DNA from: Verrucomicrobiota bacterium
Lineage (GTDB): Bacteria; Verrucomicrobiota; Verrucomicrobiia; Opitutales; Opitutaceae
DNA length: 64,000 nucleotides
Reading direction: 5' to 3'
Assembly: GCA_016235555.1 (NCBI GenBank)
Contig: JACRKC010000004.1
Coordinates: forward strand, 83,978-147,977
Below, piece by piece: positions 12,893 to 40,845 of this stretch. The notes under the pieces are model-generated. The model ran no database searches and was not told the origin of the DNA. It saw only the letters and a program-made list of their open reading frames with translations. Positions within the stretch are counted from its first letter, which is position 1, and each line of letters starts with the position of its first letter. The translations under genes were made by a program, and so were the position numbers.

Positions 12893-15800
12893 TCAAGGGA
12901 CTTCGTAGACCTCGACGAGGGCCTCGCCGGTGGCGTTGTTGGCGCCGGTGATCTGGATCGTGTAGGCGCCGGGGTCGAGGAGCGCGAGGGTGGCGGCGTC
13001 CTTCGAGTTGGCGGCGTAGGCAAACGCGGCGACGAATTGGCGGGCGCGTTCGAGTTCGGTCACGAAGGCGGCGCCGGACCAGTCGTCGTTTTCGAGCACG
13101 CGGCGCTGGTCTTTGTCGTAGACGGCGAGTTGCGGATCGGTGAGCGCGGTGGTGACGCCGAAGGCGGCGAGGGCGGGGCCGCCGCCGCGCAACAGGAGCG
13201 TGCGCTGGCCGGTGCCGCCGATCACGAGGCCGAGGATGAGCGTGGAATCGCCGGAGCCGGCGACACCGCGCACGGAGACGTTGCTCAGCTTGCTCGTGGC
13301 GGTGGTGGGGTTGTCGAGGTCGTAGACTTCGATGAGGACGATGCCGCTGCTGGGGCCGACGCCGGAGACCTGGACGGTGTAGGATTGGTTGGCGGTGAGG
13401 GAGACGAGGATGGCGGCGTCGCGGGAATTGGCGGGGAGGCCGAAGGCGCCGGCGCGGGAGAAGGCGTCGCCGATGGCGGTGGCGCTCCAGTTGTCGTTCG
13501 AGGCGATGGAGGTCTGGCCGCGGAAGACTTCGAGCTTCGGATCGGACATGGTGCCCTCGACGCCGAAGGCGGCGAGACCGGGGCCGACGGCACGGATGAG
13601 CACCTGCTTGGTGCCGGTGCCGGAGACGAAGAAGCCGGGGATGACGAGGCTGCCGGCGGCGATGTTGGTGCGGCAGGAGATGTTGGCGGGACGCGAGGCG
13701 TTGGGGTCGAGGGTGACGGTGGCGGCGTTGGAGGTGAGGGTGCCGGCGGAGTTGGAGATGCGCACGGTGTAGTTGCCGGCGTCGGACGCGGTGACGTTCT
13801 GGCGGAGGAGGGCGTTTTGCGTTTCACCCGCGAGCGCGGTGCCGTTGCGGAACCACTGGTAGGTGTTGCCGGTGCCGTTGGCGTCGACGATGAGCGTGAA
13901 TGTGGAGCCGGGCGACACGCTCTTGCTGAGCGGCTGGAGGGCGATGGTGGGAGCGCCGGTGGCGCCGACGGTGACGGTGCCGGCGGTGAGGCGGTTGGTG
14001 CCGAGGGAGTTGGTGACATCGACGGTGTAGGTGCCGGCCTGCGCGGCGGTGATCGAGTCGATGATGTAGGGGTTGCTGGTGGCGCCTGTGATGCGGAGGT
14101 TATTGAGATACCATTGGTAGGTGTAGTTGCCGCCGCCGGTGACGGAGATGGGCAACACGAGGCGGCCGCCGATGGTGAGCGAGGTGGTGGTGGCGGTGAA
14201 GCCGCTGGCGGCGACGGGGCGCGAGGTGACGGTGCCGCCGGTCGAGCCGGCGAAGGCGAAGCTGCCGGGCCACGAACCCCACGCGGCGGAGGTCACGCCG
14301 TTGCGGGTGCTGGCGGCGTAGGAAGACTGGCCGCCGAGGAGGGTGACGGTGACGGTGCCGGTGGCGCCGGCGGCGAGCACGCCGGCGTGAACGGCGGCGC
14401 GGGCGAGCGAGGAATCGTCGGTGTAGACGTCGGTGCCCCAGACGGAGCCGCTGGTGGCGCCGGTGACGGTGAACTGGAAGGTCTGGCCGACCTTGTTGCG
14501 GTAGCCGACGAGATTGGCGGGGAAGCTGGCGACCGTGGTGGTGCCGCCGGTGCTGCCGCTGGTGCCCTGATCGCCGGTGGCGAGGGCGGCGACTTCGGTG
14601 GCGAGCAGCGCGCGGCCGTAGATGCGCACCTCGTCCATCAGGCCGGAGAAATATTCGCCGCTGGCGGCGATACCGCGCGGAGCGCCGAGCTGGATCGGGA
14701 GCGTGTTGTTGGTGAGGGTGCCGACGGTCGCGGTGCCGGCGGCGGTGCCGTTGAGGTAGTAGGTGACGGTGTTGGCGATGTAGACGAAGGCGATGTGCTG
14801 CCAGGTGTCGGACGTGAAGGTGCGCGTGGAACTGGTGCTGAGGGTGGAGGAGGCGAGGCGCACGACGTTGCGCGACTGGCGCAGGGTGTCGTAGGTGTCG
14901 AAGACCCAGCCATCGGCGGTGCCGCTGGTGGCCTTGTCGACGAGGCGCGAGCCGTTGGTGGAGGCCTTCGGGTTGGTGGTGTTGATCCACAGCGAGACGG
15001 AGTAGCCGCCGGCGGAGGGATTGAGCACGGACTGGTGCGGGATGGCGATGAACTGATTGACGCCGTTGAGGGAGGCGGCCTGGCCGAAGCCGGAGCGGGA
15101 GGCGGCGAAGGTGGCGCCGTTCTGCATGGTGCCGTTGTTGGAGCCGGCGCTGTCGTTGGCGTTGCCCTCGAATTTATAATACGCGACGAGACCGTTGCCG
15201 AGGGTGGTGACGCCGCTGGAGCCGGTGGAGCCGCCGCTGGCGGTGACGGTGAAGACGATGGTGCCGCCGTTGCCGGCGGCGTTGACGCCGCGCACGCTGA
15301 AGGTGAACGAGCCCGCGGTGTTGAAGGTGCCGGTCACGAGGCCGGAGCCGGGGCTGATGGCGACGGGGGCGTTGCCGCCCATGTTTACCCAGGAGGTGGC
15401 GGCGGGGGAGGCGGTGAGCTGGTAGGTGAACGGTGTGCCGACCGTCGCGGTCAACTGGACGGGGGAATTGGTGATGACGGGGACCGTGGTGGAGCCGCCG
15501 GTCGAACCGCCGCCGCCGGTGGAGCCGCCCTCGATCGCGAAAGTGCCGCCGGTGTTTTTCAGCGGATTGAAGGTTTCGGAGGCGGCGTAGGCGCCGATGC
15601 CGTTTTGCTGCGTGAGGACGAGGGTGACGCCGGCACTACCGGCGCCGGTGAAGCCGGTGTTCATCATCAGCGTGGTCGCGCGGTTGCCGGTGGATTCGAC
15701 GAGGCGCGAGTCGAGCACCGTGTAGGTGCCGCTGCCTTGGAGCGTGGGCGCGGTGCGCGTGTAGGTGGTCGCCGAGGTGAAGACCAGGGTGAACGACTGA

Positions 15801-15982
15801 AGGGAATCGAGGGTGTTGGGCGTGCCGGCGTTGTAGGTGCAGGTGAGCGTTTTGCCGACGAGGTTGGTGGGCAGGAGTTCGTCGTTGGTGACGGCGGCGG
15901 CGCGGGGCGCGAGCAGCGAGACGAAAAACGCGCCGGCGAGGAGCACGGCGCGGCAGCAGCGGGAGGGAGGTGTGGAGCGCAT
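12893..15982 (-). CDS. secreted multidomain protein P1: Ig-like, LamG (concanavalin-like), LCCL-like, 2x Ig I-set, tandem EVYEVP C-terminal module
   Basis: I prefer the internal start MRSTPPSRCCRAVLLAGAFFVSLLAPRAAA (signal peptide). LamG: LVAYYKFEGNANDSAG...LMDEVRIYGRAL. LCCL-like: VWGTDVYTDDSSLARAAVHAGV...NGVTSAAWGSWPGSF. I-set: YQWFRNGTALAGET...DAGNYTVRISNSAG. Two C-terminal repeats (NISCRT...IEVYDLD and LSNVSVRG...LVEVYEVP). Confidence 0.85.
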   Translation of the reverse strand: MRSTPPSRCCRAVLLAGAFFVSLLAPRAAAVTNDELLPTNLVGKTLTCTYNAGTPNTLDSLQSFTLVFTSATTYTRTAPTLQGSGTYTVLDSRLVESTGNRATTLMMNTGFTGAGSAGVTLVLTQQNGIGAYAASETFNPLKNTGGTFAIEGGSTGGGGSTGGSTTVPVITNSPVQLTATVGTPFTYQLTASPAATSWVNMGGNAPVAISPGSGLVTGTFNTAGSFTFSVRGVNAAGNGGTIVFTVTASGGSTGSSGVTTLGNGLVAYYKFEGNANDSAGSNNGTMQNGATFAASRSGFGQAASLNGVNQFIAIPHQSVLNPSAGGYSVSLWINTTNPKASTNGSRLVDKATSGTADGWVFDTYDTLRQSRNVVRLASSTLSTSSTRTFTSDTWQHIAFVYIANTVTYYLNGTAAGTATVGTLTNNTLPIQLGAPRGIAASGEYFSGLMDEVRIYGRALLATEVAALATGDQGTSGSTGGTTTVASFPANLVGYRNKVGQTFQFTVTGATSGSVWGTDVYTDDSSLARAAVHAGVLAAGATGTVTVTLLGGQSSYAASTRNGVTSAAWGSWPGSFAFAGSTGGTVTSRPVAASGFTATTTSLTIGGRLVLPISVTGGGNYTYQWYLNNLRITGATSNPYIIDSITAAQAGTYTVDVTNSLGTNRLTAGTVTVGATGAPTIALQPLSKSVSPGSTFTLIVDANGTGNTYQWFRNGTALAGETQNALLRQNVTASDAGNYTVRISNSAGTLTSNAATVTLDPNASRPANISCRTNIAAGSLVIPGFFVSGTGTKQVLIRAVGPGLAAFGVEGTMSDPKLEVFRGQTSIASNDNWSATAIGDAFSRAGAFGLPANSRDAAILVSLTANQSYTVQVSGVGPSSGIVLIEVYDLDNPTTATSKLSNVSVRGVAGSGDSTLILGLVIGGTGQRTLLLRGGGPALAAFGVTTALTDPQLAVYDKDQRRVLENDDWSGAAFVTELERARQFVAAFAYAANSKDAATLALLDPGAYTIQITGANNATGEALVEVYEVP

Positions 15983-16705: not shown

Positions 16706-16750
16706 CTGGTTCCGTTATGGGTGGCTGGCGGAGGTGATCGAGGTTGCGCA

Positions 16751-16916: not shown

Positions 16917-19900
16917 TCAGGGAACGTCGTAGACTTCGACGAGGGATTCGCCGGTGCCGCCGTCGGCGCCTTTGACGACGATGTTGTAGGCGCCGGGGTC
17001 GAGGAGGGCGAGCGTGGCGGCGTCGCGGCTGCCGGTGTCGAGCGCGAACGCGCCGACGTAGTTCGCGGCGAGTGCCTGCTCGGTCACGAAGGGCGCGGCG
17101 CCCCAGTTGTCGTTATCGAGGACGGAGCGGTTGTTGGAGTCGAAGATCTCGAGGTGGGGATCGGAGAGCGTGCCTTGCACGCCGAAGGCGGCGAGCTTGG
17201 GGCCGATGCCGCGGACGAGGAGCGTGCGCTTGCCGGTGCCGCCGACGACGACGCCGAGGATGAGCACGTCGTCGCCGGTGCCGACCTGGCCGCGGACGGA
17301 GACGTTGACGAGGCGGTTGGTGGCGGTGGCGGGCGCGTCGAGATCGTAGACTTCAAGGAGGACGATGCCGGAGTTGCCGGCGGCGCCGCTGACCTGGACG
17401 GAGTAGCCCTGGCCGGCCTGGAGGCTGACGACGAGCGCGGCGTCGCGGCTGCCGGCGGGGAGGGCGAAGGCGCCCGCGGGGGCGAAGGTGGCGGCGGCGG
17501 TGGCGTCGTAGTTGTCGTTGCTGGCGACGATGGAGTTGTTGCTCTGGCGGTAGAGGTCGAACTTCGGGTCGGCGACGAGGCCTTCGAGGCCGAACTGGCC
17601 GAGGCCGGGGCCGACCGCGCGGATGAGGACGCGCTTGGTGCCGGTGCCGTCGACGAAGAAGCCGGGGGTGACGGTGCCGCCGGGGGCGAGCTTGGTGCGG
17701 CACGAGATGTTGGCGGGGCGCGAGGCGGTGGTGGTGACGGCGATCGTGGCGGGGGCGGTGGTGACGGTGCCGGCGGCGTTGGTGATGGTGCAGGTGTAGT
17801 TGCCGGAGTGGACGGCGGTGGCACCCTGGATCTCGAAGACGTTTTGGGTGGCGCCGGGGAGGGCGACGTTGTCCTTGCGCCACTGGTAGGCGAGGTTGCC
17901 GGAGCCGGAGGCGGACACGAGGAGCGAGAAGCGGGCGCCGGGCGCGACGGTCTTGGAGAGCGGCTGGAGGGTGACGGAGGGCGAGCCGGCGCTGGCGACG
18001 GTGACGATGCCGGCGTTGACGGTGGTGGTGCCGGCCGAGTTGGAGGCGCGGACGGTGTAGGTGCCGGCGTGGGCGGCGCTCACGCTGGCGATGGTGTAGG
18101 AGGCGCTGACGGCGCCGGCGATCTGGGTGCCGTTGAGAAACCACGCGTAGGTGAAGGGGCCGACGCCGCCGACCGTCACGGAAAGGCTGAGACGGCCGCC
18201 GACGGCGACGGACTGCGTGGCGGGCGGGGCGTAGGCCGCGACGGGCGCGGCGGTGGGCACGCCGGCGGAGCCGGTGGCGCCGGCGAAGGAATAGCTGCCG
18301 GACCAGGCGCCCCACGAGGCGGAGGCGACGCCGTTGCGGGTGGTGGCGGGGTAGCCGGACTGCCCGGGGAGGATGGTGATGGCGACGGTTTTGGTCTCGC
18401 CCACGGCGACGACGCCGGCATGCACGGCGGCCTTGGCGACGTTGGAGTCGTCGGTGTAGATGTCGGTGCCCCAGACGCTGCCGCTGGTGGAGCCGGTGAC
18501 CGCGAAGGAAAAGGTCTGGCCGACCTTGTTGCGGTAGGCGGTAAAGTTGGTGGGCGCGAGGTCGACGCCGGTGACGGTGGGCACGGCGGCGTAGAGGGCG
18601 GTGGCCGCGCTCACGGTGGTGGCGGCGGTGGAGATGCGCACGTCGTCGATGAGGCCGGCGACATAGGAGCCGCCGCCGCCGTCGCGGCCGATCTCGTTGG
18701 CGTTGGCGCTGCCGCCGACCGTGCCGGTGGTGGCGAGGGCGAGGGATTCGCCGTTGACGATGAGTTCCCAGCTGGCGGCGGCGCTCTTGTTGCCGCCCTT
18801 GAACACGAAGGTGAGGTGCGTCCACTGGTTGAGGGTGCTGGCGATGTAATAGCGCGGATCGCGGGAGATGATGCCGGCGCTGCCGCGGAAGCCGAAGTAG
18901 ATGGAGGCGCCGAGCGAGGAGCTGTCGGAGGCGTTGAGGCCGATGCGGGTGGCGAATTCGGTGGAGGCGGTGCGCAGGCGGAGGGGCACCATGAGCTGCG
19001 CGCTGGTGGGTTTGAACCAGAACGAAACCGAGAACGGGGCCTGGTCGGAGACGAGGGCGGCGGTGCCGAAGGCGACGTAGCCGTTGGTGCCGTTGAACTG
19101 CGCGGCCTGGCCGAGCACGCCGGTGCCGTAGGTGACGCCGCCGGAGATGGTGCCGTTGGCGGAGCCGGCGGAATCGGTGGTGTTGCCGTCGAACTTGAGC
19201 TGCGTGACGAGTCCGCCGGTGGTGCCGCTGGCGGCTGAGCCGGTGGAGCCGTCGAGGCGGACGTTGTCGATGGCGGGGCCGTAGGCGCCGTCGGTGCCGC
19301 TGCGGAACGTGAGCGTGGCGCTCGTGCCGTCCGCGACGAAGGTGAAGCTGTTATTGACCCAGCCCATGTTGGCGAGGGTCTTGCCGGTGGTGTCGAAGGT
19401 GTAGCCGCGGCTGAAGAGGCTGGTGGTGCCGTTGGCGCCGGTGACGGAGGCGGTGAGGTTCTTCACGCCGGTGCCGGCGCCGAAGCCGGGATTGCCGGCG
19501 AGGTCGAAGGTGATGGTGTAGTTGCGGCCGGCCGTGGTGGTGAACGTCTGCGCGATGGCGCCGGCGGTCACGCCGCTGAGGTCGAGGCCACGCACGCCGT
19601 CGGAGTTGGTCCAGGCGGTGCCGATATAGTCGATGTCGCCGGCGGTGACGCGCCAGCCGGTGATCGACGTCGCGCCGCTGGCGAGTGAGATCCAGGAGGA
19701 GCCGGGATTGGGGCCGGTTTCGAAGGAGCCGTTTTGGAAGGAGGAGCCGGAGGAGCTGCCGCCGGTTGTGCCGCCGCCGGTGCCGCCGCCGGTGGAACCG
19801 CCACCCGTGGAGCCGCCGCCGGATGCGGCCGTGAAGTTGGTGCTGCCGTTGAAGCGGAACTGCGTGGTGCCGTTGCCGAGCACGTCGCCGTAGTTGGAGG

Positions 19901-20420: not shown

Positions 20421-20428
20421 CTTTTTCG

Positions 20429-22660
20429 TTACGGCACTTCGTAAACCTCGACGAGGGCGATGCCGGTGGTGCCGGCGACGCCGCTGACCTGGGCGGTGTA
20501 GCTGCCGGGGGCGAGGGTAACGAGGAGGGCGGCGTCGCGCGAGTCGGCGGGAAGCGCAAATGCACCGACTTGGGAAAAAGCCGAGGCCAACTCCGGGGTG
20601 CCGCCCCAATTGTCGTTGCCGCCGAGGCGCGTCGAGTTTGCACCGAACAGGGTGAGCTGCGGATCGGACACAACGCCGGGGACGTTGAAGGGGGCTGCGC
20701 CAAGCGTCGGTCCGATGGCGCGCACGAGCACGGTGGTGGTGCCGGAGCCGCCGAGAACAAAGCCGGCCGTCAGCCCGTTTCCGACAGGTTTGAGCACCGA
20801 CACGTTGACGAGTCGCGGGGTGGTCGCAGTGGAGTTGACGTTCGCGGTTGCATCGTAGATTTCGGCGAGCACCGAGCCGATGCCGCCGTCGGCTGAAGAA
20901 ATCCGCACGGAGTTGCTCCCGGCTGTGTAGTCGAGATAAGCGGCGTCGGTGGAGAGCGGAGATGAGAACGGAAACGCGCCGACCGACGAGAAAGCGTTCG
21001 CCAGCCTCGTTGTCCCCCCCCAGTTGTCGTTTTCGCCTTTGCGGTTGGTTCCGACAAACAGCTCGATCTTTGGATCATCGACCGGATTTGTGAGGCCGAA
21101 GATCCGGAGCGACGGACCGGCGGCACGAATGACCAACGATGTGCCGTTTCGCGTCAGGTGGCCGCCCACCACATAGCCGATGGTGAACGTCTCACCAGGT
21201 GATGCCAGAGCGGTGAGAATGGAGAGGTTGGTGATGCGGCAGGTCCGCTCGACGGCCAGGACAAAGTCCGGCGAGATGTCACCGCCGGCAGAATTCGAGA
21301 TGGTCACGGCGTAGACGCCGAGGTCGGACTCCTTGACTGGAGCAAGAGACAGGGTGTCAGAGTGATAATAGCCGTTTACTCCCAGGTTCGAGACGGTCGT
21401 CTTGATCAGGGTGCCATTCCGATACCACTGGAAGGTGACGGGGGTGTTGCTCAGGACCTGGGCGCTCGTGGAGTAGTTTTCTCCGATTCGCACCGTGCGG
21501 GGTGTCAGGGGCCAGGAACTGAAGGCGGCCGGTCGCAGGTTGGGGATGACCGTGAGCGTGGCGGGTGAGCTGGTGACCGAGCCGCCAGCGTTCGTGATCG
21601 TAACGGTGTAGGCACCGGCATCGCTGCGTCGCGCATTTTCGATCAACAGTTGGCTTTGAAGCAGCCGGAATCCCGTGGTCGCGGACGTGATCACCACACC
21701 ATCTTTCTTCCACACGTAGGTGGCATTGATCGACGAATCGCTCACCGCGATGATCGTGCTGCGCCCCTCATCGACGGTTTTCGACGCGGGCTGCTGGAGA
21801 ATCACGGGCGAAGGGGTCGGCCGCTGAACTGAAGTGCGCACCTCGAATTTCTTGTAGAACGACACGCGCATCGAATTCGCCGCGGTGACCGACGTGTATA
21901 ACCGGGTGCTGGACAGCGTGCCGTGGTAGAGGTCGCCCGGCGAACTCGGGAAGGTGAAGCTGAAGCTGGTGGCGGAAGATGAGAGGCTGCCGGAGGGCGT
22001 GGCATAGAAGATGGAGCCATTCGCGCGGGACAAGGTGAAGTTCACGTCGTCGCCAGTGGCGGTGTCCGGGATCGGCTGCCAGAGAATCTGCAGCTGACCA
22101 CCGGCCCACGATTGCAGTGAATCATAATTCGTAAATCGTGGAACGGCCCAGTTGTTGTCGTAGTAGCTCGGAAAACTGGTGCTGAAGTTGGAGCCGCCGC
22201 CGGAGACGGCGAGAGTGTAGGTGCCGGCGGAGGCCGCGGCATTCAATGCTGCGTGGTCGGCAAAAGTCTGCGTCCCGGCAAAGGTGGTGGTTCCGGGGCT
22301 GGAACTGGATGAACGTGCGAGCGACATGGTGGTGCCCGGCGTCGTGAGCGTCACCGAGGTCGCACTGGAAATGTCCCCGGGGAAGCGGACCGAAACTTCG
22401 AGGGAGGGTTTGAAAACCGAGAGGGTCGCAGCGGCCGTTTGCTCGTAACTGAATTTCTTGGTCACGGCCACTGTTTCGGGCGTTTGAGCAGGAAGCAGGG
22501 AGGCCGAGGCGAGGGCGGCGAGGGCGAGTGGCGACCGGAGCAATACCAATCGTCCGCCACTCTTGGACTGCGGGCCCGGCCGCTGGCCGGGCGCAACCGG
22601 CCAACGGCCGGTTCTACAACCAAGCAAAAGTCCAGAAGCAACCGGCGATTGGAATAACAT
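20429..22660 (-). CDS. secreted protein P3: N-terminal domain of unknown family, 2x Ig I-set, tandem C-terminal module
   Basis: This is the 3' part of the artefactual 1373-aa track ORF. The start is uncertain: either the ATG at 22660 (MLFQSPV...) or a downstream TTG just before VLLRSPLALAALASASLLPAQ. I-set: YVWKKDGVVITSAT...DAGAYTVTITNAGG. It ends IALVEVYEVP. Confidence 0.75.
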   Translation of the reverse strand: MLFQSPVASGLLLGCRTGRWPVAPGQRPGPQSKSGGRLVLLRSPLALAALASASLLPAQTPETVAVTKKFSYEQTAAATLSVFKPSLEVSVRFPGDISSATSVTLTTPGTTMSLARSSSSSPGTTTFAGTQTFADHAALNAAASAGTYTLAVSGGGSNFSTSFPSYYDNNWAVPRFTNYDSLQSWAGGQLQILWQPIPDTATGDDVNFTLSRANGSIFYATPSGSLSSSATSFSFTFPSSPGDLYHGTLSSTRLYTSVTAANSMRVSFYKKFEVRTSVQRPTPSPVILQQPASKTVDEGRSTIIAVSDSSINATYVWKKDGVVITSATTGFRLLQSQLLIENARRSDAGAYTVTITNAGGSVTSSPATLTVIPNLRPAAFSSWPLTPRTVRIGENYSTSAQVLSNTPVTFQWYRNGTLIKTTVSNLGVNGYYHSDTLSLAPVKESDLGVYAVTISNSAGGDISPDFVLAVERTCRITNLSILTALASPGETFTIGYVVGGHLTRNGTSLVIRAAGPSLRIFGLTNPVDDPKIELFVGTNRKGENDNWGGTTRLANAFSSVGAFPFSSPLSTDAAYLDYTAGSNSVRISSADGGIGSVLAEIYDATANVNSTATTPRLVNVSVLKPVGNGLTAGFVLGGSGTTTVLVRAIGPTLGAAPFNVPGVVSDPQLTLFGANSTRLGGNDNWGGTPELASAFSQVGAFALPADSRDAALLVTLAPGSYTAQVSGVAGTTGIALVEVYEVP

Positions 22661-22722: not shown

Positions 22723-24855
22723 TCACGGCACGTCGTAGACTTCGACGAGGGCGGTGCCGGTGGTGCCGCCGACGCCGCTGACCTGGGCGGTGTAGCTGCC
22801 GGGGGCGAGGGTGACGAGGAGGGCGGCGTCGCGCGTGGTGCTGGCGAGGGGAAACGCGCCGACGCTGGAGAACGACGCGCCGAGGGTGGGGTCGCCGCCC
22901 CAGTTGTCGTTTTCGTTGATCTTGGTGGCGCCGGTGAAGAGTTCGAGTTTGGGATCGGCGACGGCACCGGTGACGCCGAAGGCGGTGAGCGTCGGGCCGA
23001 TGGCGCGGATGAGCATGGTTTTCGCGGTCTGTCCGCCGACGTAAAAGCCGGCGATCAGCACGTCGCCGTCGAGGCCGACTTGCGTGCGCGCCGAGACGTT
23101 GACGAGGCGCGGGGTCGAGGCGGTGAACGCGGTGGCGGCCGTGGCGTCGTAGATCTCGGCGAGCGCGACGCCGGCCGCGGGGCCGCTGATCTGGACGGTA
23201 TAGGTGGCCGAGGCGATGTTGGGCAGGTAGAGCGCGGCGTCGCGCGAGGTCGGCGCCCCGAGGCTGAACGCACCGAGGGCCGCGCTGGCGGCGGCGACCT
23301 GGGCGTCGCCGGACCAGTTGTCGTTTTCGTTCAGCTTGGCCCCGGTGGCGGAGGCGTAGACCTCGAGCTTGGGATCGGCGAGGAAATCGGTGAGGCCGAA
23401 GGCGCCGAGCGCGGGACCGACGCCGCGGATCAGGATGGGCTTGCTGCCGGTGCTGCCGGCGCCGCCGACGGCAAAGCCGACGATGAGGGTCTGGCCGCCG
23501 GTGCCGGCCTGCGAGCGGATCGCCAGATTGCTGATACGGCCGGCGGCGGCAGCCGGAGCGGCGAGGGCGACGGCGGAAGCGTTGCTGCGCACGGTGCCGC
23601 CGGGGCTGGTGACATCGACGCTGTAGCTGCCGGTCGAGAGGCTCTGGGCCGTGAACACGTAGGAGGAACCCGTGGCGCCGAGGATGGGCGCGCCGTTTTT
23701 CTGCCACTGGTAGGTGAGCGCGCTGCCGCTGGCGGCGACCGACAGGGCGACGGTGCTGCCGGTGGCGACCTGCAGGGCTTGCGCCGCGGACTGGATGACG
23801 GGGCGGGCCGCGATCGTGCCCTTGCGGACGACGTAGTTGCCGGAGTCGGCAACATAGAGGCTGCCCGCTTGGTCGACCGCGATGGCGTAGGGGCGGGAAA
23901 AGCGGGCGACCGACCCGGCGCCGGTGGCGTTGCCGCTCACGCCGGGCGAACCGCCGATGGTGGTCACGGCGCCCTCCGGGGTGATCTTGCGCACGGTGTG
24001 GTTGGCGTATTCGCAGACGAAGACGTTGCCGGCGGCGTCCAAGGCGACGCCCGCGGGCGCGAGGAAGCGCGCGGCGGCGCCGGTGCCGTCGGTGCCGCCG
24101 GTGGCGCGGGCGGTGCCGGCGAGGGTCGAGACGACGCCGGCCGGCGAAATCTTGCGAATCGTGTGGTTGTCGAGGTCGGCGACGTAGAGATTGTCCGCGG
24201 CATCGATGGCGAGGCCGGTGGGGTGGTTGAACAACGCGCTCGCGCCGGGGCCGTCGGTGGCGCCGGTCGTGCCGGCGGTGCCGGCGATGGTGGTGGTGTC
24301 GCCCGCCGGCGTGACGCGGCGGATGGTGTTGTTGAGCGAATCGGCGACGTAGAGGTTGCCGGCGCGGTCGATGGCGGCGCCGACCGGGTAGTTGAAGCGG
24401 GCGGCGGTGCCGTTGCCATCGGCGCTGCCGGTGAGCAGGGACAGGCCGGCGACATTGACGACGTCGCCGGCGGGGGAGAGCCGGCGGACGTTGTTGGCGA
24501 AGGTGTCGACGATGTAGAGGTTGGCCGAGGCGTCGAAGGCGAGCCCCCACGGGGAGAGGAACCGCGCGGTGGCGGCCGGACCGTTGGCCACGCCGGCCAC
24601 GGTCAAGGAGCCGGCGATGGTGGTGACGGTGGCGTCGGGGGTGACCTGCCGGACGCAGCCGGTGTCGGCGACGATGAGGTTGCCGTTGGCGGCGACGGCC
24701 AGGCCGACGGGCAGACGGAACCGGGCGGCGGGGCCGGTGCCATCGCGCGGGGTCACGGATTCGGTCGCGCCGGCGAACGTGGTGAACTCGTAGGTCTGGG
24801 CGCCGAGGGAACCGACGAAGGCCAGGGCGGTGAGGGCGCTGCGGAGCGTGGACAT
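22723..24855 (-). CDS. secreted protein P4: NHL-repeat beta-propeller, Ig I-set, tandem C-terminal module
   Basis: I prefer the start MSTLRSALTALAFVGSLGAQ. It has repeated NHL units (GNLYVADSLNNTIRRVTPAGDTTTIAG...DG.G..A.F..P.G). I-set: YQWQKNGAPILGAT. It ends TALVEVYDVP. Confidence 0.85.
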   Translation of the reverse strand: MSTLRSALTALAFVGSLGAQTYEFTTFAGATESVTPRDGTGPAARFRLPVGLAVAANGNLIVADTGCVRQVTPDATVTTIAGSLTVAGVANGPAATARFLSPWGLAFDASANLYIVDTFANNVRRLSPAGDVVNVAGLSLLTGSADGNGTAARFNYPVGAAIDRAGNLYVADSLNNTIRRVTPAGDTTTIAGTAGTTGATDGPGASALFNHPTGLAIDAADNLYVADLDNHTIRKISPAGVVSTLAGTARATGGTDGTGAAARFLAPAGVALDAAGNVFVCEYANHTVRKITPEGAVTTIGGSPGVSGNATGAGSVARFSRPYAIAVDQAGSLYVADSGNYVVRKGTIAARPVIQSAAQALQVATGSTVALSVAASGSALTYQWQKNGAPILGATGSSYVFTAQSLSTGSYSVDVTSPGGTVRSNASAVALAAPAAAAGRISNLAIRSQAGTGGQTLIVGFAVGGAGSTGSKPILIRGVGPALGAFGLTDFLADPKLEVYASATGAKLNENDNWSGDAQVAAASAALGAFSLGAPTSRDAALYLPNIASATYTVQISGPAAGVALAEIYDATAATAFTASTPRLVNVSARTQVGLDGDVLIAGFYVGGQTAKTMLIRAIGPTLTAFGVTGAVADPKLELFTGATKINENDNWGGDPTLGASFSSVGAFPLASTTRDAALLVTLAPGSYTAQVSGVGGTTGTALVEVYDVP

Positions 24856-25369: not shown

Positions 25370-28300
25370 TCATGGCACTTCGTAAACCTCGACGAGGGCG
25401 ATGCCGGTGGTGCCGGCGACGCCGCTGATCTGGGCGGTGTAACTGCCGGGGGCGAGCGTGGCGATGAGCGCGGCGTCGCGGGAGGTGGTGCCGGTGAGAT
25501 TGAACGCGCTCACGGACCGGAAGGCGGCGGTGAGATCGGCGGAGCCGCCCCAGTCGTCGTTGCTCGTGACGAGCGATTGCTTCGAGTCGAAAACCTGGAG
25601 CAGCGGATTGGCGAGCGTGCCGGTGACGCCGAATTGGGCGAGCGAAGGGCCGATGCCGCGGAGGAGAATGCGTTTCGGGACGTTGCCGTTGAGTGCGAAG
25701 CCGGCGATGAGAAGGCCGGTGCCGGTGCCGACTTGGGCGCGGGCGGAGACGTTGGCGAGGCGGCTGACGGCAGCGAAGGTCTGCGCGCCCGCAGGGGTCG
25801 GATCGGCGTCGTAGATTTCGGCGAGGACGATGCCGGACGAATTGCCGGACCCGGCGATCTGGACGGTGTAGCTGGCGGCGGGGAGGCTGCGCACGAGCGC
25901 GGCGTCGCGGCTGGCGGCGTCGAGCGGAAAGGCGCCGACGGTGGCGGCCGCGACGCCGATGGCGGGGAGACCGGACCAGTTGTCGTTCGAGTCGACGGTG
26001 GCATTGCTGTCGGCGTTGAGGAGCGTGATCTGCGGATCGGCGAGGGCGCCGGTGACGCCGAAGGCGGTGAGCGCGGGGCCGATGCCGCGGATGAGCAGCG
26101 GCTTGGCGGCGGAGCCGGTGAGGTTGAAGCCGACGATCAGGGTTTGCGCGCCGGTGCCGGCGGTGGTGCGCACGGAGAGGTTGACGAGGCGGCCGGGATT
26201 GAGCGGCTCCACGGTGATGACGGCGGGCGGGCTGGTGAGGGCGCCTTGCGAGTTCGTGATGGCGACGGTGTAGGCGCCGGCGGTGGCGAAGGTGGTGGCG
26301 GCCACGGAGAAAGTCGCCGCGGTCGCGCCGGCGATGGCGGTGCCGTCCTTGCTCCACTGGTAGGCCATGGCGCCGGTGCCGGTGGCGTTGACGGTGAGCG
26401 TGAGAGGGAGGCCGAGCACGACGATCTGCGATTTGGGCGCGAGGGCGATGGCGAAGGCCTCGGTGACGGCGCGGCCGAGGCGGCGGGCGTTGGCGCGGTA
26501 TTGGGGCCAGGGGCCGCCGGCGCTGCCGACGCCGAGGTCGATGGCGTAGAGTTTCTCGTCGTTGCTGCCGCAGTAGAGCATGGTGCCGGCGATGGCCGGG
26601 CAGGAGCGGATGAAATTGCCGGTGGCCCAGGTGCGCTTGAGCGTGCCGTCGGGATTCACGGCGTAGATCTTCTGGTCGTAGCAGCCGAGGTAGATCACGC
26701 CGTTGGCGTCGATGGCGGGAGAGCTGGCCCGCACTTCGTTGCCGAGGTCGAAGGTCCAGCGCACATCGCCGGTGGTGGTGGCGCGGGCGTAGAGTTTTTT
26801 GTCGTAGCCGCCGTAGTAGAGAGTTGAGCCATCGGCGCTGAGGGCGGGGCTGGACGAGATGTTGCCGCCGGAGACGGCGCGCCAGCGCAGCGTGCCGGCG
26901 GGGGTGAGCGAATAGACGCCGCCGGTGAGCGTGCAAAAGTAGAGGTTGCCGGCGGCATCGATCGCGGGGGCGGTGTAGACGCCGGAGTCGGCGCGGAAAT
27001 TCCACTTCGGCGTGCCGTCGGGGTTGATGGCGTAGAGGCGCGAATCGTTTTCGTCGGAGCCTTGGTAGATGGTGCCATCGGCGCCGACGACGGGACTGCC
27101 GTAGAAGGAGGAGAGGGGCGCGTTGACGGAGGCCTTCCATTTTTCGGTGCCGTCGGCGGGGTTGATGGCGTGAAGGGAGCCGTCGGCGACTTTGAGGTAG
27201 ATGGTGCCATCGGCGCCGATGGCGGGGCTGTTGGCGGCGGGATTGGTGACGGTGGTGGAACCGTTCGTGATGTTGAAGCTGTGCGTCCATTTCGTGGTGC
27301 CGTCGGGGTTGACGGCGTAGAGGAGGCCATCGTTCGAGCCGACATAGACGGTGCCGTCGGCCGCGAGGGCGGGCGAGCAGGTGTCGATGGAGCCGCCGGT
27401 GGTCTTGCTCCATCTGGGGGTGCCGTCGGGGGCGAACGCGTAGAGCGAGCCGTCGGTGCTGCCGACGTAGACGGTGCCGTCGGCGGCGACGGCGGGTGCG
27501 CCGGTGATCACATCGGTGGCGGCGGCCTGCCAGACGGAATCGTTGAGGGTGAGGGCGAAGCTGCCGACGGCGCTCTTCGCATCGACGCTGATGCGGTAGG
27601 TGGTGCCGGCGACGGCCTCGACGGTGCACAGCGCGGCGGTCACCCCGGTGGTGGTGGACAGGTTGTCGTTGGCCGTGACGAGGCTGAGCGAGGTGAGGGC
27701 GTCGCCAGTGTAGACGGCGAGGAGGGGATCGAAGTCGGTGCTGGTGGCCGCGAATTGAAAACGGCCGGAGCGCGGTGCGGTCCAGCGATACCAGAGCGAA
27801 GTGCCGCCGGTGAAGGTGAGGATGCGGGGCTCGCCGGTCTCGCGGGTGCAGTTGGCGTTGGTGGCGAGGACGAGGTCGCTGGAGCCGGTGAGCGCGACCG
27901 GCGTGGCGAAGGCGTCGTTGGCGGGCACGGAGCCGAGATTGAGCAACGTGAGGCCGGTGGCGCCGTTCTTGCCGTCGACGGCGATGAGATAGGTGACGCC
28001 GGCCTGCGCGGTGAAATCGATCCGGCTCGTGGTGGCGGGGCCGTCGTTGTCGTTGCTGGCGACGGGGGTGAGCCCGTTCGACAGGCTCAGAGCGGGCGCG
28101 CCGGGAAGAGCGGTGTAGATGGCGAGCAGCGTGTCGTAGCTGCTGCCGGTGGTGGTCACGCGCACGGCGGCGGTGGTCGAGGGCGTCCACTCCCACCAGA
28201 GCGACGTGCCGCCGGGCAGGCCGGCGTGGGCGGGCTCGCCGGGCTCGCTGGCGGCGCCGGTGTTGTTGGAGCGGACGAGGAAGTTGTCGCCGATGAGGCG

Positions 28301-29635
28301 GGCGCGTTCGGCGAAGGCGTCGTTGAACGGGGCGTTGGACGTGGTGGTGAGGGCCTTGAAGAGGTTGAGGCGGCCGCCGGTCTGCGCCTTGCCGGCGAAG
28401 CGCGGGCCGGGATCGGTGCCGCGGAGCAGGCGGTTGATGAGCTGGCGGTGGGTGTCGCCGGGGAACTGCGCCTTCAGCAGCGCGAGGGCGCCGGCCACGT
28501 GGGGCGCGGCCATGGAGGTGCCGCTCTTGGTGGTGACGCCGGTGTTGCTGGCGTAGTTGAGGGAGACGATCGACTCGCCGGGGGCGAAGAGGTCGACGGC
28601 GGCGCCGTAGTTGGAGGAGTTGGACAGGAAGTCGTTGCGCTGGGAATTGCCGACGGTGACGATGTTGTCGAGCGCGTGGCTGGCGGGGTAGTGGCGGGAG
28701 ACGTCCAGGTTGACGGCGTCGTTGCCGGCGGCGGCGACGAACAGGATGCCGGCGTCGCGGGCGGCCGCGATGGCGGCGAACTCGTCGGGGTCGAAGCCAC
28801 CGCTGCCCGTCTCGCCGTAGCTGCCGTTGATGAGGTGGGCGCCGTTGCGGATCGCGTAGTTGATGCCGGCGGTGATCTCGGAATTGCGGCCGCCGCCGGT
28901 GGCGGGGAAGACCTTCACGGCCATGAGCTGGACCTTCCAGGCGACGCCGGCGCTGGCGACGCCGTTGTTGCCGGCGGCGCCGACGATGCCGGCGACGTGC
29001 GTGCCGTGGCCGTTGTCGTCGGCGGGGTTGCCGGTGAAGGTCGCGCCGCGACCGCCGACGAAATTGGCGCCGTTCACATCGCTGCGCGTGGGGGCGGGGT
29101 TGCGCCAGAGATTGGGGGTGATGTCCTGATGGTTGAGATTGAGACCGGTATCGAGGATGGCGACGACGACGTTGGGCGCCTCGCGGATGATATCCCAGGC
29201 TTCGGTGGCCTTGATGTCGGCGCCGGCCACGCCGCCGCTGGCGCCGGTGTTGGCGAGGCCCCATTGGTCGCGGAACGAAGGGTCGTTGGGCGTCGTGGCG
29301 TCGAGGTGGCGGATGCGGTCGCGCACGACGAACTCGTAACGGCCGGTGGCCTGCAGGCGGGCGATGGCGGCGTCGACCGTCTCGCCGGCGGCGACCGCGA
29401 TCACGCGCATGTCGCCGATGCGCTCGAAGCGGGCGTGGACGCGCACGCCCTCGCGGGCTTCGTCGGCATCAACGCGTGCGCGGTGCGAGACGCGGGGTTT
29501 GGCGATGACGGTGTCGTCGGCGTAGCCTTGGGCGAGTTCCTTGGCGGTAAAGCGTTCGTCCGGACCGGCCGAACGGGTGGCCGCCAACGCGAGCGAGCCG
29601 AGGGCGAGGACCAGGACGGGCAGGCGGAAAGGCAT
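25370..29635 (-). CDS. secreted S8 subtilisin-like peptidase P5: propeptide, S8 catalytic domain, 2x PPC-like, PQQ-like beta-propeller, Ig I-set, tandem C-terminal module
   Basis: I prefer the start MPFRLPVLVLALGSLALAA. Catalytic triad contexts: VVAILDTGLN (Asp), HGTHVAGIVGAAGNNG (His), SGTSMAAPHVAGALALL (Ser). Propeller blades: DGTVYVGSTDGSLYAFAPDGTPRW repeated about 8 times. It ends IALVEVYEVP. Confidence 0.9.
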   Translation of the reverse strand: MPFRLPVLVLALGSLALAATRSAGPDERFTAKELAQGYADDTVIAKPRVSHRARVDADEAREGVRVHARFERIGDMRVIAVAAGETVDAAIARLQATGRYEFVVRDRIRHLDATTPNDPSFRDQWGLANTGASGGVAGADIKATEAWDIIREAPNVVVAILDTGLNLNHQDITPNLWRNPAPTRSDVNGANFVGGRGATFTGNPADDNGHGTHVAGIVGAAGNNGVASAGVAWKVQLMAVKVFPATGGGRNSEITAGINYAIRNGAHLINGSYGETGSGGFDPDEFAAIAAARDAGILFVAAAGNDAVNLDVSRHYPASHALDNIVTVGNSQRNDFLSNSSNYGAAVDLFAPGESIVSLNYASNTGVTTKSGTSMAAPHVAGALALLKAQFPGDTHRQLINRLLRGTDPGPRFAGKAQTGGRLNLFKALTTTSNAPFNDAFAERARLIGDNFLVRSNNTGAASEPGEPAHAGLPGGTSLWWEWTPSTTAAVRVTTTGSSYDTLLAIYTALPGAPALSLSNGLTPVASNDNDGPATTSRIDFTAQAGVTYLIAVDGKNGATGLTLLNLGSVPANDAFATPVALTGSSDLVLATNANCTRETGEPRILTFTGGTSLWYRWTAPRSGRFQFAATSTDFDPLLAVYTGDALTSLSLVTANDNLSTTTGVTAALCTVEAVAGTTYRISVDAKSAVGSFALTLNDSVWQAAATDVITGAPAVAADGTVYVGSTDGSLYAFAPDGTPRWSKTTGGSIDTCSPALAADGTVYVGSNDGLLYAVNPDGTTKWTHSFNITNGSTTVTNPAANSPAIGADGTIYLKVADGSLHAINPADGTEKWKASVNAPLSSFYGSPVVGADGTIYQGSDENDSRLYAINPDGTPKWNFRADSGVYTAPAIDAAGNLYFCTLTGGVYSLTPAGTLRWRAVSGGNISSSPALSADGSTLYYGGYDKKLYARATTTGDVRWTFDLGNEVRASSPAIDANGVIYLGCYDQKIYAVNPDGTLKRTWATGNFIRSCPAIAGTMLYCGSNDEKLYAIDLGVGSAGGPWPQYRANARRLGRAVTEAFAIALAPKSQIVVLGLPLTLTVNATGTGAMAYQWSKDGTAIAGATAATFSVAATTFATAGAYTVAITNSQGALTSPPAVITVEPLNPGRLVNLSVRTTAGTGAQTLIVGFNLTGSAAKPLLIRGIGPALTAFGVTGALADPQITLLNADSNATVDSNDNWSGLPAIGVAAATVGAFPLDAASRDAALVRSLPAASYTVQIAGSGNSSGIVLAEIYDADPTPAGAQTFAAVSRLANVSARAQVGTGTGLLIAGFALNGNVPKRILLRGIGPSLAQFGVTGTLANPLLQVFDSKQSLVTSNDDWGGSADLTAAFRSVSAFNLTGTTSRDAALIATLAPGSYTAQISGVAGTTGIALVEVYEVP

Positions 29636-29702
29636 CGGGCGCACGATGGTGATTGATGGCGGAGAGACAAGTGCTGGCGCGGCCGGTGCTCCGGGCGGAG
29701 TG

Positions 29703-29890: not shown

Positions 29891-32386
29891 GTGACGGCCG
29901 AATCTGCGCAAAGGCTCGACGCCCGCCTCCCGCACCGACAAGGTGCGGAGGTGACTTTTCGGCATGTCCCGACATCGCACGACTGGTCCGCGGGCTGGCG
30001 TGGAGCGCGGCTCGCGGCTGCGTGGCTGCTTGGCTGGACGGCGGCGGTCCACGCGCAGTCGTCCTCGCTGCCCTATGTGTGGTCGACCCTGGCCGGCAGC
30101 GCGTCGGGCGGGTCCGCCGCGTGGGTGGATGCGACGGGAGCGGCGGCCCGGTTTGCGAACCCCGCGGGGATCGCGATCGACAGCGTGGGAGTGCTGTTCG
30201 TGGCCGACAGTGCGAACAACTCGGTGCGGCGGGTGCTGGCCAGCGGAGCCGTGGCGACGGTGGCGGGCGCGACGACGGCGGGTTTCGAGGATGGCTCCGG
30301 TGCCGCCGTGCGATTCAGCGGTCCGCTGGGTCTGGCGGTCGATTCCGGCGGCAATCTTTATGTGGCCGACACGGCCAATCACGTCGTCCGCAAGATCACG
30401 CCGGCGGGCTTGGTTTCGACCATCGCGGGGCGCGCGGGCACGGGGGGCTTCGCGGATGGCCCGGTGGGGGTGAGCCGGTTGAAATCGCCGCGAGGCGTGG
30501 CGATCGACGCGGCGGGGAACCTCTATGTGGCGGACACGGGCAACCAGCTCATCCGCAAGCGCGATGCCGACGGGCAGCTCTACACGTTCGCCGGGCAGCT
30601 CGAGACGACGGGCAGTGTCGATGGCGTCGCGTCGAGTGCGCGGTTCTCGGCGCCGTGGGGACTCGCGATCGATCCGGCGGGCAATCTCGTCGTGGCGGAT
30701 TCGGGCAACGCCACCGTGCGCCGGGTCACGCCCGGCGGCACGGTGACCACGATCGCCGGATTGGCGGGGAGCGCGGGCAGCGCCGATGGCCCGGGCGCGG
30801 CGGCGCGGTTTGTGCAGCCGGCCGGCGTGGCGGTCGATGCCGCGGGAAACATCTTCGTGGCCGATGCGGGCAATCACACGCTCCGCGGCATCACTTCCGC
30901 CGGCGTCGTCACGACCATCGGTGGCGTGGCGGGCACGCGTGGGGCGGCCGACGGGCCCGACGGCGCGGCGCTGTTTGCCGGTCCGGCGGGGGTGGCCGTC
31001 GATCCGGCCGGAGTTCTCTATGTGGCTGATCGGGACAACAACACCATCCGTGCCGGCCGCGTGCCGCGGGCCCCGACGATCAGCGTCCAGCCCGTGGGGG
31101 TGACGGTTTCAGCCGGGGTGGGGGCCACGTTCAGCGTCGTGGCGAGTTCGCTCGTGAACGTGACTTATCAGTGGTCGCTCAACGGGGCGGCCATCTCCGG
31201 CGCGACGGCGGCGAGTTATGCCATCGGATCGGCGAACGCGCGCGACGCCGGGGGCTATACGGTCGCGATCACCAATCTCGCCGGCACGACGAACAGCGCG
31301 GTCGCGACGCTCACCGTCAACGCGCCGCCGGCCATCGCCACGGCGACGGCGGCGACGGCGTTCGGGACCGCCAGCAACGCCGTGCTCAGCGTGGCGGCGG
31401 TCGGCTCGGGTAATTTCACCTATCAGTGGCAGCGCGACGGCCAGGCGGTGGCCGGTGCCACCGGCGCCACCCTCGCGACCGACGTTGCGGGCAACTACAC
31501 GGTGGTCGTCAGCAACAGTTTTGGTTCCGTGACCAGCGCGCCGGTGCGGATCGAGTATCCGAACCGGCTGGTCAACCTCTCCACCCGCGGAACCGTCGGC
31601 AACGGCGCGGGCGCCCTTGTCGCCGGGCTTGTGGTGCAGGCGCCGGCGGGCGCGACGAAGTCCCTGCTCGTGCGCGGCATCGGCCCGGGGCTGCGCAGTT
31701 TCGGCGTCGACGGCGCCGTCGCGCGGACCTCGCTGAGCATCGTCGATGCCGGCGGGGCGACGCTCGCCAGCAACGACCAAGGCTGGCTGAACAATCCCAA
31801 CCTGCCGCAACTCGATGCGGCGACCCGGGCGGTGGGGGCGTTTGCGCTCCAGCCCTCGAGCGGCGATTCCGCCGTGTTGGTCACCCTGCCGGGCGGCGTC
31901 TACACGGTGAGTGTCGGGGCCGTGGGCGGCGCGACCGGCACCGGCCTCGTGGAGATCTACGAGGTGGGCGCCGACAGCTCGCGACTCGTGAATTTGTCGA
32001 CTCGCGGCGTGGTCTCGGCGACCGCGGCGTTGACGGTCGGCGTGGTCGTGGGCGGCACCGCGTCCACGAAACTCCTCGTGCGTGCGATCGGGCCCGGCCT
32101 CGCGCAATTCGGTGTGGCCGGCGCGCTGGCGCGACCGCAACTCACGGTGTTCAGCGGCGCGACGCAGATCGCGACCAACGCCGGGTGGACCGTCCCCGGC
32201 AACGGGAGCAATCCCACGACCCTGGCCGGAGCGGCGAGTGCCGCGGGGGCGTTTCCGCTCGCCGCCGGCAGCGACGACGCGGCGCTGTTGCTGACGAATC
32301 TCGCTCCGGGCAGCTATACGGCGGTCGCGACGGGAGCAGGCGGCGCGACCGGCGCGGCGCTGATCGAGGTTTATCAGGTGCCGTGA
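29891..32386 (+). CDS. secreted protein P6: NHL-repeat beta-propeller, 2x Ig I-set, tandem C-terminal module
   Basis: The start is uncertain (GTG 29891 or in-frame GTG 29951). Signal-like ARLAAAWLLGWTAAVHAQ. NHL units: GNLYVADTANHVVRKITPAGLVSTIAG. I-set: YQWSLNGAAISGAT...DAGGYTVAITNLAG. It ends AALIEVYQVP. Confidence 0.85.
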   Translation: MTAESAQRLDARLPHRQGAEVTFRHVPTSHDWSAGWRGARLAAAWLLGWTAAVHAQSSSLPYVWSTLAGSASGGSAAWVDATGAAARFANPAGIAIDSVGVLFVADSANNSVRRVLASGAVATVAGATTAGFEDGSGAAVRFSGPLGLAVDSGGNLYVADTANHVVRKITPAGLVSTIAGRAGTGGFADGPVGVSRLKSPRGVAIDAAGNLYVADTGNQLIRKRDADGQLYTFAGQLETTGSVDGVASSARFSAPWGLAIDPAGNLVVADSGNATVRRVTPGGTVTTIAGLAGSAGSADGPGAAARFVQPAGVAVDAAGNIFVADAGNHTLRGITSAGVVTTIGGVAGTRGAADGPDGAALFAGPAGVAVDPAGVLYVADRDNNTIRAGRVPRAPTISVQPVGVTVSAGVGATFSVVASSLVNVTYQWSLNGAAISGATAASYAIGSANARDAGGYTVAITNLAGTTNSAVATLTVNAPPAIATATAATAFGTASNAVLSVAAVGSGNFTYQWQRDGQAVAGATGATLATDVAGNYTVVVSNSFGSVTSAPVRIEYPNRLVNLSTRGTVGNGAGALVAGLVVQAPAGATKSLLVRGIGPGLRSFGVDGAVARTSLSIVDAGGATLASNDQGWLNNPNLPQLDAATRAVGAFALQPSSGDSAVLVTLPGGVYTVSVGAVGGATGTGLVEIYEVGADSSRLVNLSTRGVVSATAALTVGVVVGGTASTKLLVRAIGPGLAQFGVAGALARPQLTVFSGATQIATNAGWTVPGNGSNPTTLAGAASAAGAFPLAAGSDDAALLLTNLAPGSYTAVATGAGGATGAALIEVYQVP

Positions 32387-40824: not shown

Positions 40825-40845
40825 CACCTTCGCTGGCAGAATTTT

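Follow-up and report, generated by a model that had tools for sequence, protein, structure and literature searches.

A paired, uncurated module with a predicted beta-jelly-roll fold closes seven exported proteins of an Opitutaceae bacterium and may act as a portable tether

The DNA considered here is a stretch of 64,000 nucleotides (the window) from a Verrucomicrobiota bacterium of the family Opitutaceae (assembly GCA_016235555.1, contig JACRKC010000004.1, positions 83,978 to 147,977), and its subject is a protein module that occurs as a tandem pair at the end of seven gene products, P1 to P7 (Table 1). An initial annotation had proposed that seven secreted proteins of different architecture end in two copies of one module of ~125 amino acids (aa), a candidate sorting or anchoring domain. 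Seven open reading frames (ORFs) lie at or near the coordinates given at the time and each does end in two copies of a shared tandem module; the length had to be corrected to 127-135 aa (~128), so that a pair spans ~260 residues. A hidden Markov model (HMM) built from the 14 copies and searched against the six-frame translation of the window found exactly 14 modules, with independent E-values of 1.2e-43 to 4e-58, and nothing further better than E = 0.3. Pairwise identity among the copies is 29-66% (mean 44%), and the computed consensus, RLxNxSxR...LIxGF...LIRAIGPxL...FGV...ADPxL...NDNW...GAFxL...SRDAAL...PGSYTxQVSG...E[VI]Y, agrees with the one drawn up by hand over the 14 repeats. The four C-terminal sequences read at that stage are also correct: LVEVYEVP in P1, P3 and P5, LVEVYDVP in P2 and P4, LIEVYQVP in P6 and LLEIYELP in P7, with the stop codon following immediately. 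The tail shared by the seven proteins is a real feature, far beyond chance, and it is uncurated.

The regions that precede the pair, its passengers, are those that had been named. Pfam and NCBIfam models identify LamG/LCCL, DUF642-like, NHL and S8 domains, together with a PQQ-like propeller in P5 and P7, and the single member said to carry a choice-of-anchor domain is P2, which scores 146 bits against TIGR04362 (DUF642 / choice-of-anchor C; cut-off 120). The name of the choice-of-anchor C family reflects the company of alternative surface anchors. Immediately before the pair all seven proteins have one or two immunoglobulin (Ig)-like domains (I-set/Ig_3 in Pfam), of which the matches in P4, P5 and P7 score under Pfam's curated cut-off. 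P5 and P7 possess in addition two ordinary PPC-like domains (PF04151) between protease and propeller; these mid-protein domains are matched by the model in 6 of 7 sequences, at best with E = 9.9e-9. Every one of the seven N-termini resembles a signal peptide, with a basic stretch, a hydrophobic region and an Ala-X-Ala-like site, and a lipobox is present in none. The starts assigned to P3 and P6 may be off by as much as ~110 nt, and alternative ones with more typical signal peptides exist for both (TTG at 22549 for P3, GTG at 29951 for P6).

Table 1. Module-bearing genes of the window and the limits of their modules
Feature	Position in window	Strand	Architecture or remark	Independent E-value
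P1	12893..15982	-	signal peptide, LamG (Laminin_G_3), LCCL, two Ig-like, module pair	
P1 module 1	13313..13693	-	full-length profile match	2e-51
P1 module 2	12896..13291	-	ends LVEVYEVP, then TGA	6.2e-51
P2	16917..20225	-	signal peptide, DUF642 / choice-of-anchor C, LamG, LCCL, two Ig-like, module pair	
P2 module 1	17337..17720	-		1.9e-46
P2 module 2	16920..17315	-	ends LVEVYDVP	1.5e-52
P3	20429..22660	-	signal peptide, ~230-aa N-terminal region without curated match, two Ig-like, module pair	
P3 module 1	20849..21238	-		3.9e-44
P3 module 2	20432..20815	-	ends LVEVYEVP	3.3e-50
P4	22723..24855	-	signal peptide, NHL beta-propeller, Ig-like domain, module pair	
P4 module 1	23143..23538	-	in AlphaFold2 tandem model	6.4e-46
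P4 module 2	22726..23109	-	ends LVEVYDVP; modelled singly (AlphaFold2)	4e-58
P5	25370..29635	-	signal peptide and propeptide, peptidase S8, two PPC-like, PQQ-like beta-propeller, Ig-like, module pair	
P5 module 1	25802..26191	-		2.7e-52
P5 module 2	25373..25762	-	ends LVEVYEVP	1.7e-53
P6	29891..32386	+	signal peptide, NHL beta-propeller, two Ig-like, module pair; divergent from P5	
P6 module 1	31565..31966	+		2.3e-43
P6 module 2	31982..32383	+	ends LIEVYQVP	1.2e-43
P7	49094..53302	+	P5 paralog: S8, two PPC-like, propeller, Ig-like, module pair	
P7 module 1	52499..52882	+		1.8e-47
P7 module 2	52913..53299	+	ends LLEIYELP	2e-50

The module had been thought to lack a curated family, and searches of Pfam, NCBIfam and the PDB with sequences and HMMs bear this out. 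Pfam-A gave no match on the tails, and relaxing the threshold to E <= 10 brought none for the 14 modules taken singly; NCBIfam release 20, searched with whole proteins and with tails, gave nothing above cut-off for the module; and a profile search of PDB sequences returned only 2KPT at E = 0.39, and nothing once the profile was deepened. The only curated model with any signal on the tail is that of the DVUA0089 family (NF038127), which aligns with 74 residues of P4 module 2 (tail residues 183-256; E = 6.7e-4), and its 20.1 bits stay below the cut-off of 29. Full-text literature searches found EVYEVP-type termini in unrelated eukaryotic papers only, papers on Opitutaceae or Verrucomicrobia retrieved with sorting or PPC terms held no description of the module, and a tblastn search of a plasmid collection had no matches.

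The family is very large and yet without a Pfam or NCBIfam model: of the representative clusters formed at 50% identity, 18,383 reach E <= 0.001 against the profile and 10,159 reach E <= 1e-30. All named matches are Verrucomicrobiota (Opitutaceae, Opitutales, Chthoniobacterales and unclassified Verrucomicrobiota), and they fall into two subfamilies, the window type of Opitutaceae/Opitutales and a type with the pattern NISTR...ESA...TAIV that includes Chthoniobacterales. Because no curated module model exists, the carriers are labelled by their passenger domain or as 'hypothetical'. The NCBI protein MBI5766349.1, from a Verrucomicrobia metagenome-assembled genome (MAG), is a case in point; it has the length of P5 (1421 aa) and is identical to P5 residues 1-1062 (100% identity, 100% query coverage), and its database name is 'PQQ-binding-like beta-propeller repeat protein' and nothing more.

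By AlphaFold2 the single module (P4 module 2, modelled with the family alignment) is confidently predicted to be an eight-strand beta-jelly-roll with two short helices (predicted local distance difference test, pLDDT, 96.7; predicted TM-score, pTM, 0.90). The model of the P4 pair reaches a pLDDT of 94.1 and a pTM of 0.88, and a fixed packing of the two modules is therefore predicted. In a Foldseek search of the PDB the best match of the single module is the PPC domain of Bacillus anthracis collagenase (5SV5; E = 2e-4, probability 1.00, TM-score 0.56 on the query and 0.67 on the target), and the collagen-binding domain of ColG (1NQJ, 0.53/0.67; 1NQD, 0.55/0.61), the claudin-binding C-terminal domain of Clostridium perfringens enterotoxin (C-CPE) and the C-terminal jelly-rolls of the subtilases Tk-SP and KP-43 also rank high. 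The tandem model is closest to the tandem collagen-binding domain s3a-s3b of ColG (5IKU, E = 9.2e-8), followed by other two-jelly-roll proteins; the global TM-scores of these tandem matches are low, so the modules are arranged unlike those of ColG. The initial annotation had allowed that a match to a well-characterised domain with a non-sorting role would speak against sorting, and such a match exists in part, at the level of the fold, with PPC, ColG and C-CPE. Domains that bind polymers or proteins are among the characterised representatives of this fold class, and the PPC-containing C-terminal segment of a Grimontia collagenase is reported to have been examined for collagen binding (PMC6168687).

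The module shares with the PPC and collagen-binding domains a jelly-roll of similar size that superposes on the solved structures, tandem use at the C-terminus of secreted proteins and a weak common pattern in equivalent strands (DPxLxL...NDN; GxYxxxVxG...G). It differs in its two extra short helices, in motifs of its own (NxSxR, RxxGPxL, NDNW, GAF, DAA and ExY), in its restriction to Verrucomicrobiota among named matches, and in its use, being nearly always paired, mostly on non-protease passengers and also N-terminal or alone. Numbered along P4 module 2, its conserved residues are N4, R35, G38-P39, D51-P52, N67-D68-N69-W70, F86, D94, Y106, E123 and Y125. PF04151 does not match it, and an hhalign comparison of the module alignment with the PPC-like domains of P5, P7 and their homologs, although it aligned equivalent strands over 82 columns (E = 0.0039), returned a probability of 8.7%. 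Since a relation in sequence is thus not established, we file the module under the PPC-like fold class and not under PF04151; it is most aptly seen as a new family of domains whose fold and functional class are already known.

Two functional alternatives relate to this fold. PPC domains of secreted proteases have a proposed accessory or pro-domain role, and the pair might accordingly aid folding, stability or type II secretion and be trimmed after export, with no part in binding. The PPC-like fold itself, the C-terminal place of the pair in the S8 proteases P5 and P7, and the stabilising C-terminal jelly-rolls that Tk-SP/KP-43-related proteases bear and that appear among the matches would fit this. 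It is nonetheless quite improbable, given that P5 and P7 already possess two ordinary PPC domains, S8 peptidases make up only 2 of 56 sampled proteins, the pair also occurs N-terminally and alone, and the tail is as conserved as the catalytic-side domains.

The second alternative makes the pair a new lectin resembling a carbohydrate-binding module (CBM), which would direct secreted enzymes to an environmental polysaccharide that Opitutaceae consume. Opitutaceae and Chthoniobacterales are abundant degraders of polymers in soil and freshwater, and such a role would fit the lifestyle of the former. CBM35, CBM36 and tandem CBM51 are among the structural matches, and like the module they are jelly-rolls used in tandem on secreted proteins; a few passengers are glycosidase-associated, such as DUF4982 or the GH16 domain (PF00722) of family member P0511; and proteins that consist of a signal peptide and the pair alone look lectin-like. 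Against it, PPC, the collagen-binding domain and C-CPE are all better structural matches than the CBMs (TM-score about 0.40 for CBM35 and CBM36), and Pfam finds no CBM on the module; membership in CBM35, CBM36 or CBM51 is not supported. The passengers are moreover mostly not carbohydrate-active enzymes: the 56 sampled proteins contain 74 Pfam families, with Ig-like domains in 28 and, besides these, NHL and other propellers, S8 and M10 peptidases, PPC and only a few glycosidase-associated domains, and LamG/LCCL, plastocyanin-like and DUF1800 domains are likewise found on carriers of the pair. We regard this alternative as unlikely.

How the module is deployed was followed in two samples, a census of position and pairing in the 150 top representatives of the 18,383 matching clusters, and 80 genomic loci found with a single P4 tail as query, which represent close relatives only. 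Pairing is nearly constant: 109 of the 150 representatives have two modules, 31 have four and ten have three, five or six, while the ORFs of the related loci have two in 108 cases and one in seven. Modules 1 and 2 are distinct lineages, the nearest module of another protein occupying the same position in 441 of 504 comparisons. The location at the C-terminus that had been claimed holds as a strong bias, in that the protein ends no more than two residues from the module end in 138/150 representatives, 117/120 matches of a first search and 90/109 related-locus ORFs. It does not hold as a rule. In 17 of the 109 ORFs from Opitutaceae loci the pair stands straight after the signal peptide, in 16 large proteins and in one with a TonB_C domain, and the two large proteins that were scanned (L067 and L033) have CHRD and DUF1800 domains. 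About 40 of the 150 representatives have extra N-terminal or internal copies besides the terminal pair, and in a few proteins a further 200-340 residues follow the last pair. Stand-alone proteins of ~312 aa, a signal peptide and the pair only, occur in the Chthoniobacterales-like subfamily, and one cluster of them has 63 member sequences.

Several of these unusual architectures deserve mention in their own right. The class with an N-terminal pair, which is conserved in Opitutaceae, comprises L067 9911-13120, L033 9944-12997, L045 3778-8307, L058 9325-12678 and about 12 more. The TonB_C protein (L036 2677-3864, 396 aa; PF03544, E = 2.2e-13) consists of signal peptide, pair and TonB_C, an odd combination if the pair works outside the cell. 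In P0131, P0137, P0138 and P0144 the region after the pair ends in a repeated dockerin- or EF-hand-like motif (D.N.D.R[LI]DL.EL.RVIELYN...TG.Y...EDGF) with the terminus EDGFxxGP, and no Pfam model covers this region in P0131. Stand-alone examples are P0310, P0305, P0325, P0389 and P0354, often with a four-residue tail (MGAF, QGAF or PGAL), and at L081 (8001-8951) a stand-alone pair gene adjoins genes for a glycosyltransferase, a methyltransferase and a sulfotransferase.

The extreme C-terminus had been called invariant, and this did not survive the wider sample. A hydrophobic residue followed by proline ends 195 of 254 terminal pairs in the Opitutaceae-type set, and 87 of 103 P5 homologs with the pair; internal pairs run on as ...DL[DGST] and a linker. 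In the Chthoniobacterales-like subfamily the last residue is Q (32), P (17) or H (15), and also D, N, R or K, so that the ending is typical of the Opitutaceae subfamily only. It is also lost from the P5 orthologs of cultured strains, which end ...EVYEVGE in Opitutus sp. ER46 and ...EIYDVQ in Horticoccus luteus. The hydrophobic-proline ending is preferred, not required.

The pair also behaves as an exchangeable C-terminal cassette. Of 120 proteins homologous to the P5 passenger, 103 retain the pair and 16 full-length members have a different tail of ~270 aa, and a known anchor was found on none of the 120. In the P5 orthologs module 2 is 60% identical to that of P5 on average, comparable with the propeller (62%) and the PPC regions (59-63%), and conservation peaks, among the stretches measured, in the last 20 residues (72%). 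As to the second tail itself (P0426, P0441, P0472 and 13 more), it follows the Ig domain in the same place as the pair and ends ...LEQNGADVTxQIVVNPxP; neither Pfam nor NCBIfam has a model that matches it, and it was not found in the window or the 80 loci. A different kind of likeness is seen at the 3' ends of P3, P4 and P5 (20432-20550, 22726-22845 and 25373-25490, all on the minus strand), where the last ~120 nt are 81-97% identical in DNA and only 3-5 of 26-29 same-amino-acid codons differ, the remaining tail being 43-78% identical. This has the appearance of local gene conversion among neighbouring paralogs or, failing that, of unusually strong constraint on the two final strands.

A tail with these properties could be a dedicated C-terminal secretion or sorting domain comparable to the C-terminal domains (CTDs) of the type IX secretion system (T9SS), whose free hydrophobic-proline end would be recognised by a Verrucomicrobiota-specific outer-membrane translocon or sortase before the domain is cleaved or linked to glycan or lipid. 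The terminal bias, the hydrophobic-proline end of terminal pairs as opposed to the varied residues that follow internal ones, the many unrelated passengers, the restriction to one lineage, the choice-of-anchor C domain of P2 and the conservation of the last 20 residues in P5 orthologs would all be accommodated. Like the T9SS CTD (type A, TIGR04183), the module is a folded beta-sandwich at the extreme C-terminus of unrelated signal-peptide proteins that ends on its last strand and is lineage-specific. The T9SS CTD, however, is a single Ig-like domain of ~80-100 aa, whereas the pair consists of two 128-aa jelly-rolls and is not obligatorily C-terminal, and with 260 residues it is far above the size of known signals. 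TIGR04183 does not match the isolated tail, its sole trace (E = 0.093) lying in the Ig region of P1 (residues 720-750), and no T9SS CTD is found among the top 50 Foldseek matches of the single module.

None of the T9SS components PorK/L/M/N, Sov/SprA, PorU and PorV was recognised in the scanned ORFs of the window or among the recurrent neighbours of the 80 loci, and no recurrent neighbour gene of these loci points to a dedicated machine. The commonest neighbour family, DUF1501 (12 loci), owes its frequency to the DUF1800 subfamily with N-terminal pairs; the histidine kinases (8 loci, the best non-trivial family), sigma-54 activators (6) and type II secretion system protein F (5) that follow are too rare to make a case for a dedicated system. 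Together with the internal, N-terminal and passenger-less pairs, and with a terminal residue that is unconserved in the Chthoniobacterales-like subfamily and lost in cultured orthologs, this makes a sorting domain of the T9SS kind a distinctly unlikely explanation.

The tripartite sorting signals are a separate matter. In these a short signature motif precedes a transmembrane helix, and an arginine-rich or basic cluster follows it (bioRxiv 10.1101/2023.06.07.544157). The module family resembles the proteins of such systems (PEP-CTERM/exosortase, LPXTG/sortase, MYXO-CTERM) in having multiple paralogs per genome with only the tail in common, and PEP-CTERM proteins have overlapping passengers (choice-of-anchor C; a ScyF-type NHL protein). 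That the seven proteins lack a PEP-CTERM or transmembrane tail and LPXTG had been read from the sequence, and the hydropathy of their C-termini agrees: the maximum over 19 residues on the Kyte-Doolittle scale is ~1.0 within the last 60 residues of all seven, and among the last 45 residues of 397 retrieved family members there is no stretch of 16 that is hydrophobic (mean > 2.0). With no C-terminal hydrophobic segment in either set, the tails do not match the definition of a PEP-CTERM, LPXTG or MYXO-CTERM signal.

We favour the view, with confidence that is evenly poised, that the tail pair is a portable, non-covalent tether of exported proteins to a common polymeric target, which would most likely belong to the cell itself, as a glycan or matrix constituent of its envelope or exopolysaccharide. 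The carriers would be exported through Sec, as the signal peptides of all seven suggest; the tandem pair is predicted to fold as one rigid unit, usually held at the C-terminus on one or two Ig-like spacers; and it would attach many unrelated enzymes and binding proteins non-covalently to the shared target. This view draws on the PPC/collagen-binding type of fold, on the use of the pair at either end of a protein or alone, on the Ig spacers, on the diversity of passengers and on the confinement to one phylum. As an autonomous and portable binding unit, the pair would serve to retain or anchor its carriers and would not be a signal for a sorting enzyme to read and remove. Of the role first proposed, localisation or anchoring thus remains the most plausible; the analogy with a dedicated sorting signal finds no support because the pair also stands away from the C-terminus, the fold is that of binding domains and the terminus is not invariant.

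Several points weigh against the tether. The fold class is the sole ground on which binding is proposed, by analogy with its characterised members; homology to PPC in sequence is not established, with no PF04151 match on the tails and an hhalign probability of under a tenth; and the single-module Foldseek E-value is modest, while TM-scores of ~0.55 also fit a generic jelly-roll. A plain binding module explains neither the preference for the C-terminus, nor the end on the last strand, nor the enrichment of proline, and because of these features the free C-terminus may yet have a part to play. The neighbourhood hint of polysaccharide, finally, comes from one locus (L081); this locus and the sub-threshold similarity to DVUA0089 hint at a polysaccharide link as leads, not as evidence. 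DVUA0089 belongs to a sigma-54 regulon annotated with exopolysaccharide and biofilm synthesis in Desulfovibrio vulgaris (PMC4641369). The corresponding lead was rejected in the window, in which the sigma-54 -24/-12 pattern has 18 matches against 22.7 expected; one site with two mismatches lies upstream of P6.

In a further variant, a surface-display pathway peculiar to Verrucomicrobiota would use the pair for recognition and attachment: the pair would have the PPC-like fold, its free C-terminal strand, with the hydrophobic-proline end in Opitutaceae, would be read or modified by the machinery, and the N-terminal and stand-alone copies would be secondary re-uses. The pair would then be a functional analogue of the T9SS CTD with its A-LPS anchoring, or of the SLH domain with its secondary cell-wall polymer. 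We give this variant little credence. It is still less probable that the pairs serve self-association, binding each other on different proteins or oligomerising to form a surface layer or matrix made of protein. In keeping with that idea, some proteins have a pair at each end or four to six modules, paralogs are very numerous (seven in the 64-kb window) and the Ena jelly-roll appendage subunits are among weak structural matches, yet the TM-scores of the latter are below 0.4, and modelling covered the monomer only.

The module occurs on a wide range of the sampled signal-peptide proteins of Opitutaceae and Chthoniobacterales, and a curated model of it would improve the annotation of thousands of MAG proteins. 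For a phylum about whose envelope little is known, such a model would also provide a simple marker of proteins associated with the cell surface or matrix. Should the ligand be a lineage-specific envelope glycan, the pair would represent a ready-made display tag for Verrucomicrobia. Cultured carriers of the pair are at hand in Horticoccus luteus, with the protein WP_220161038.1 and its tandem unit at residues 1146-1404, and in Opitutus sp. ER46, with WP_107837420.1; in P4 the corresponding unit lies within residues 440-710.

Some features of the window stand apart from the tail. Residues ~60-280 of P3 (21821-22483 of the window, minus strand) have no Pfam or NCBIfam match and resemble by eye the N-terminus of at least one other module-bearing representative; they are probably another uncurated family. 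The window has a G+C content of ~69%, at which spurious long ORFs are common, and long antisense ORFs at 12797-16030, 16734-19238, 23080-25251 and 27062-29656 (all plus strand) lie opposite P1, P2, P4 and P5. We reject them as genes and regard them as artefacts of the high G+C, the coding pattern of G+C by codon position (third > first > second) being present only on the strands of the module genes. A gap of 935 nt (15983-16916) separates the P1 start from the P2 stop; it has no convincing ORF, and if P1 is extended upstream in frame, the added stretch does not look like coding sequence. Scans of the whole window for Rfam families and tRNAs found nothing. The region 40000-44100 has a G+C of 0.605 against ~0.69 elsewhere and holds genes for a C-5 cytosine DNA methylase (41961-43241, plus strand) and an HNH endonuclease (43248-44042, minus strand), and may be a restriction-modification island. 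Upstream of the cluster, a gene for a protein with DUF7133 and cytochrome c domains (6984-9641, plus strand; PF23500, E = 6.6e-106), whose product is probably of the haem-binding class typical of the PVC group, adjoins a major facilitator superfamily (MFS) transporter gene on the opposite strand (9759-12284), an ordinary context that is consistent with a Verrucomicrobiota origin.

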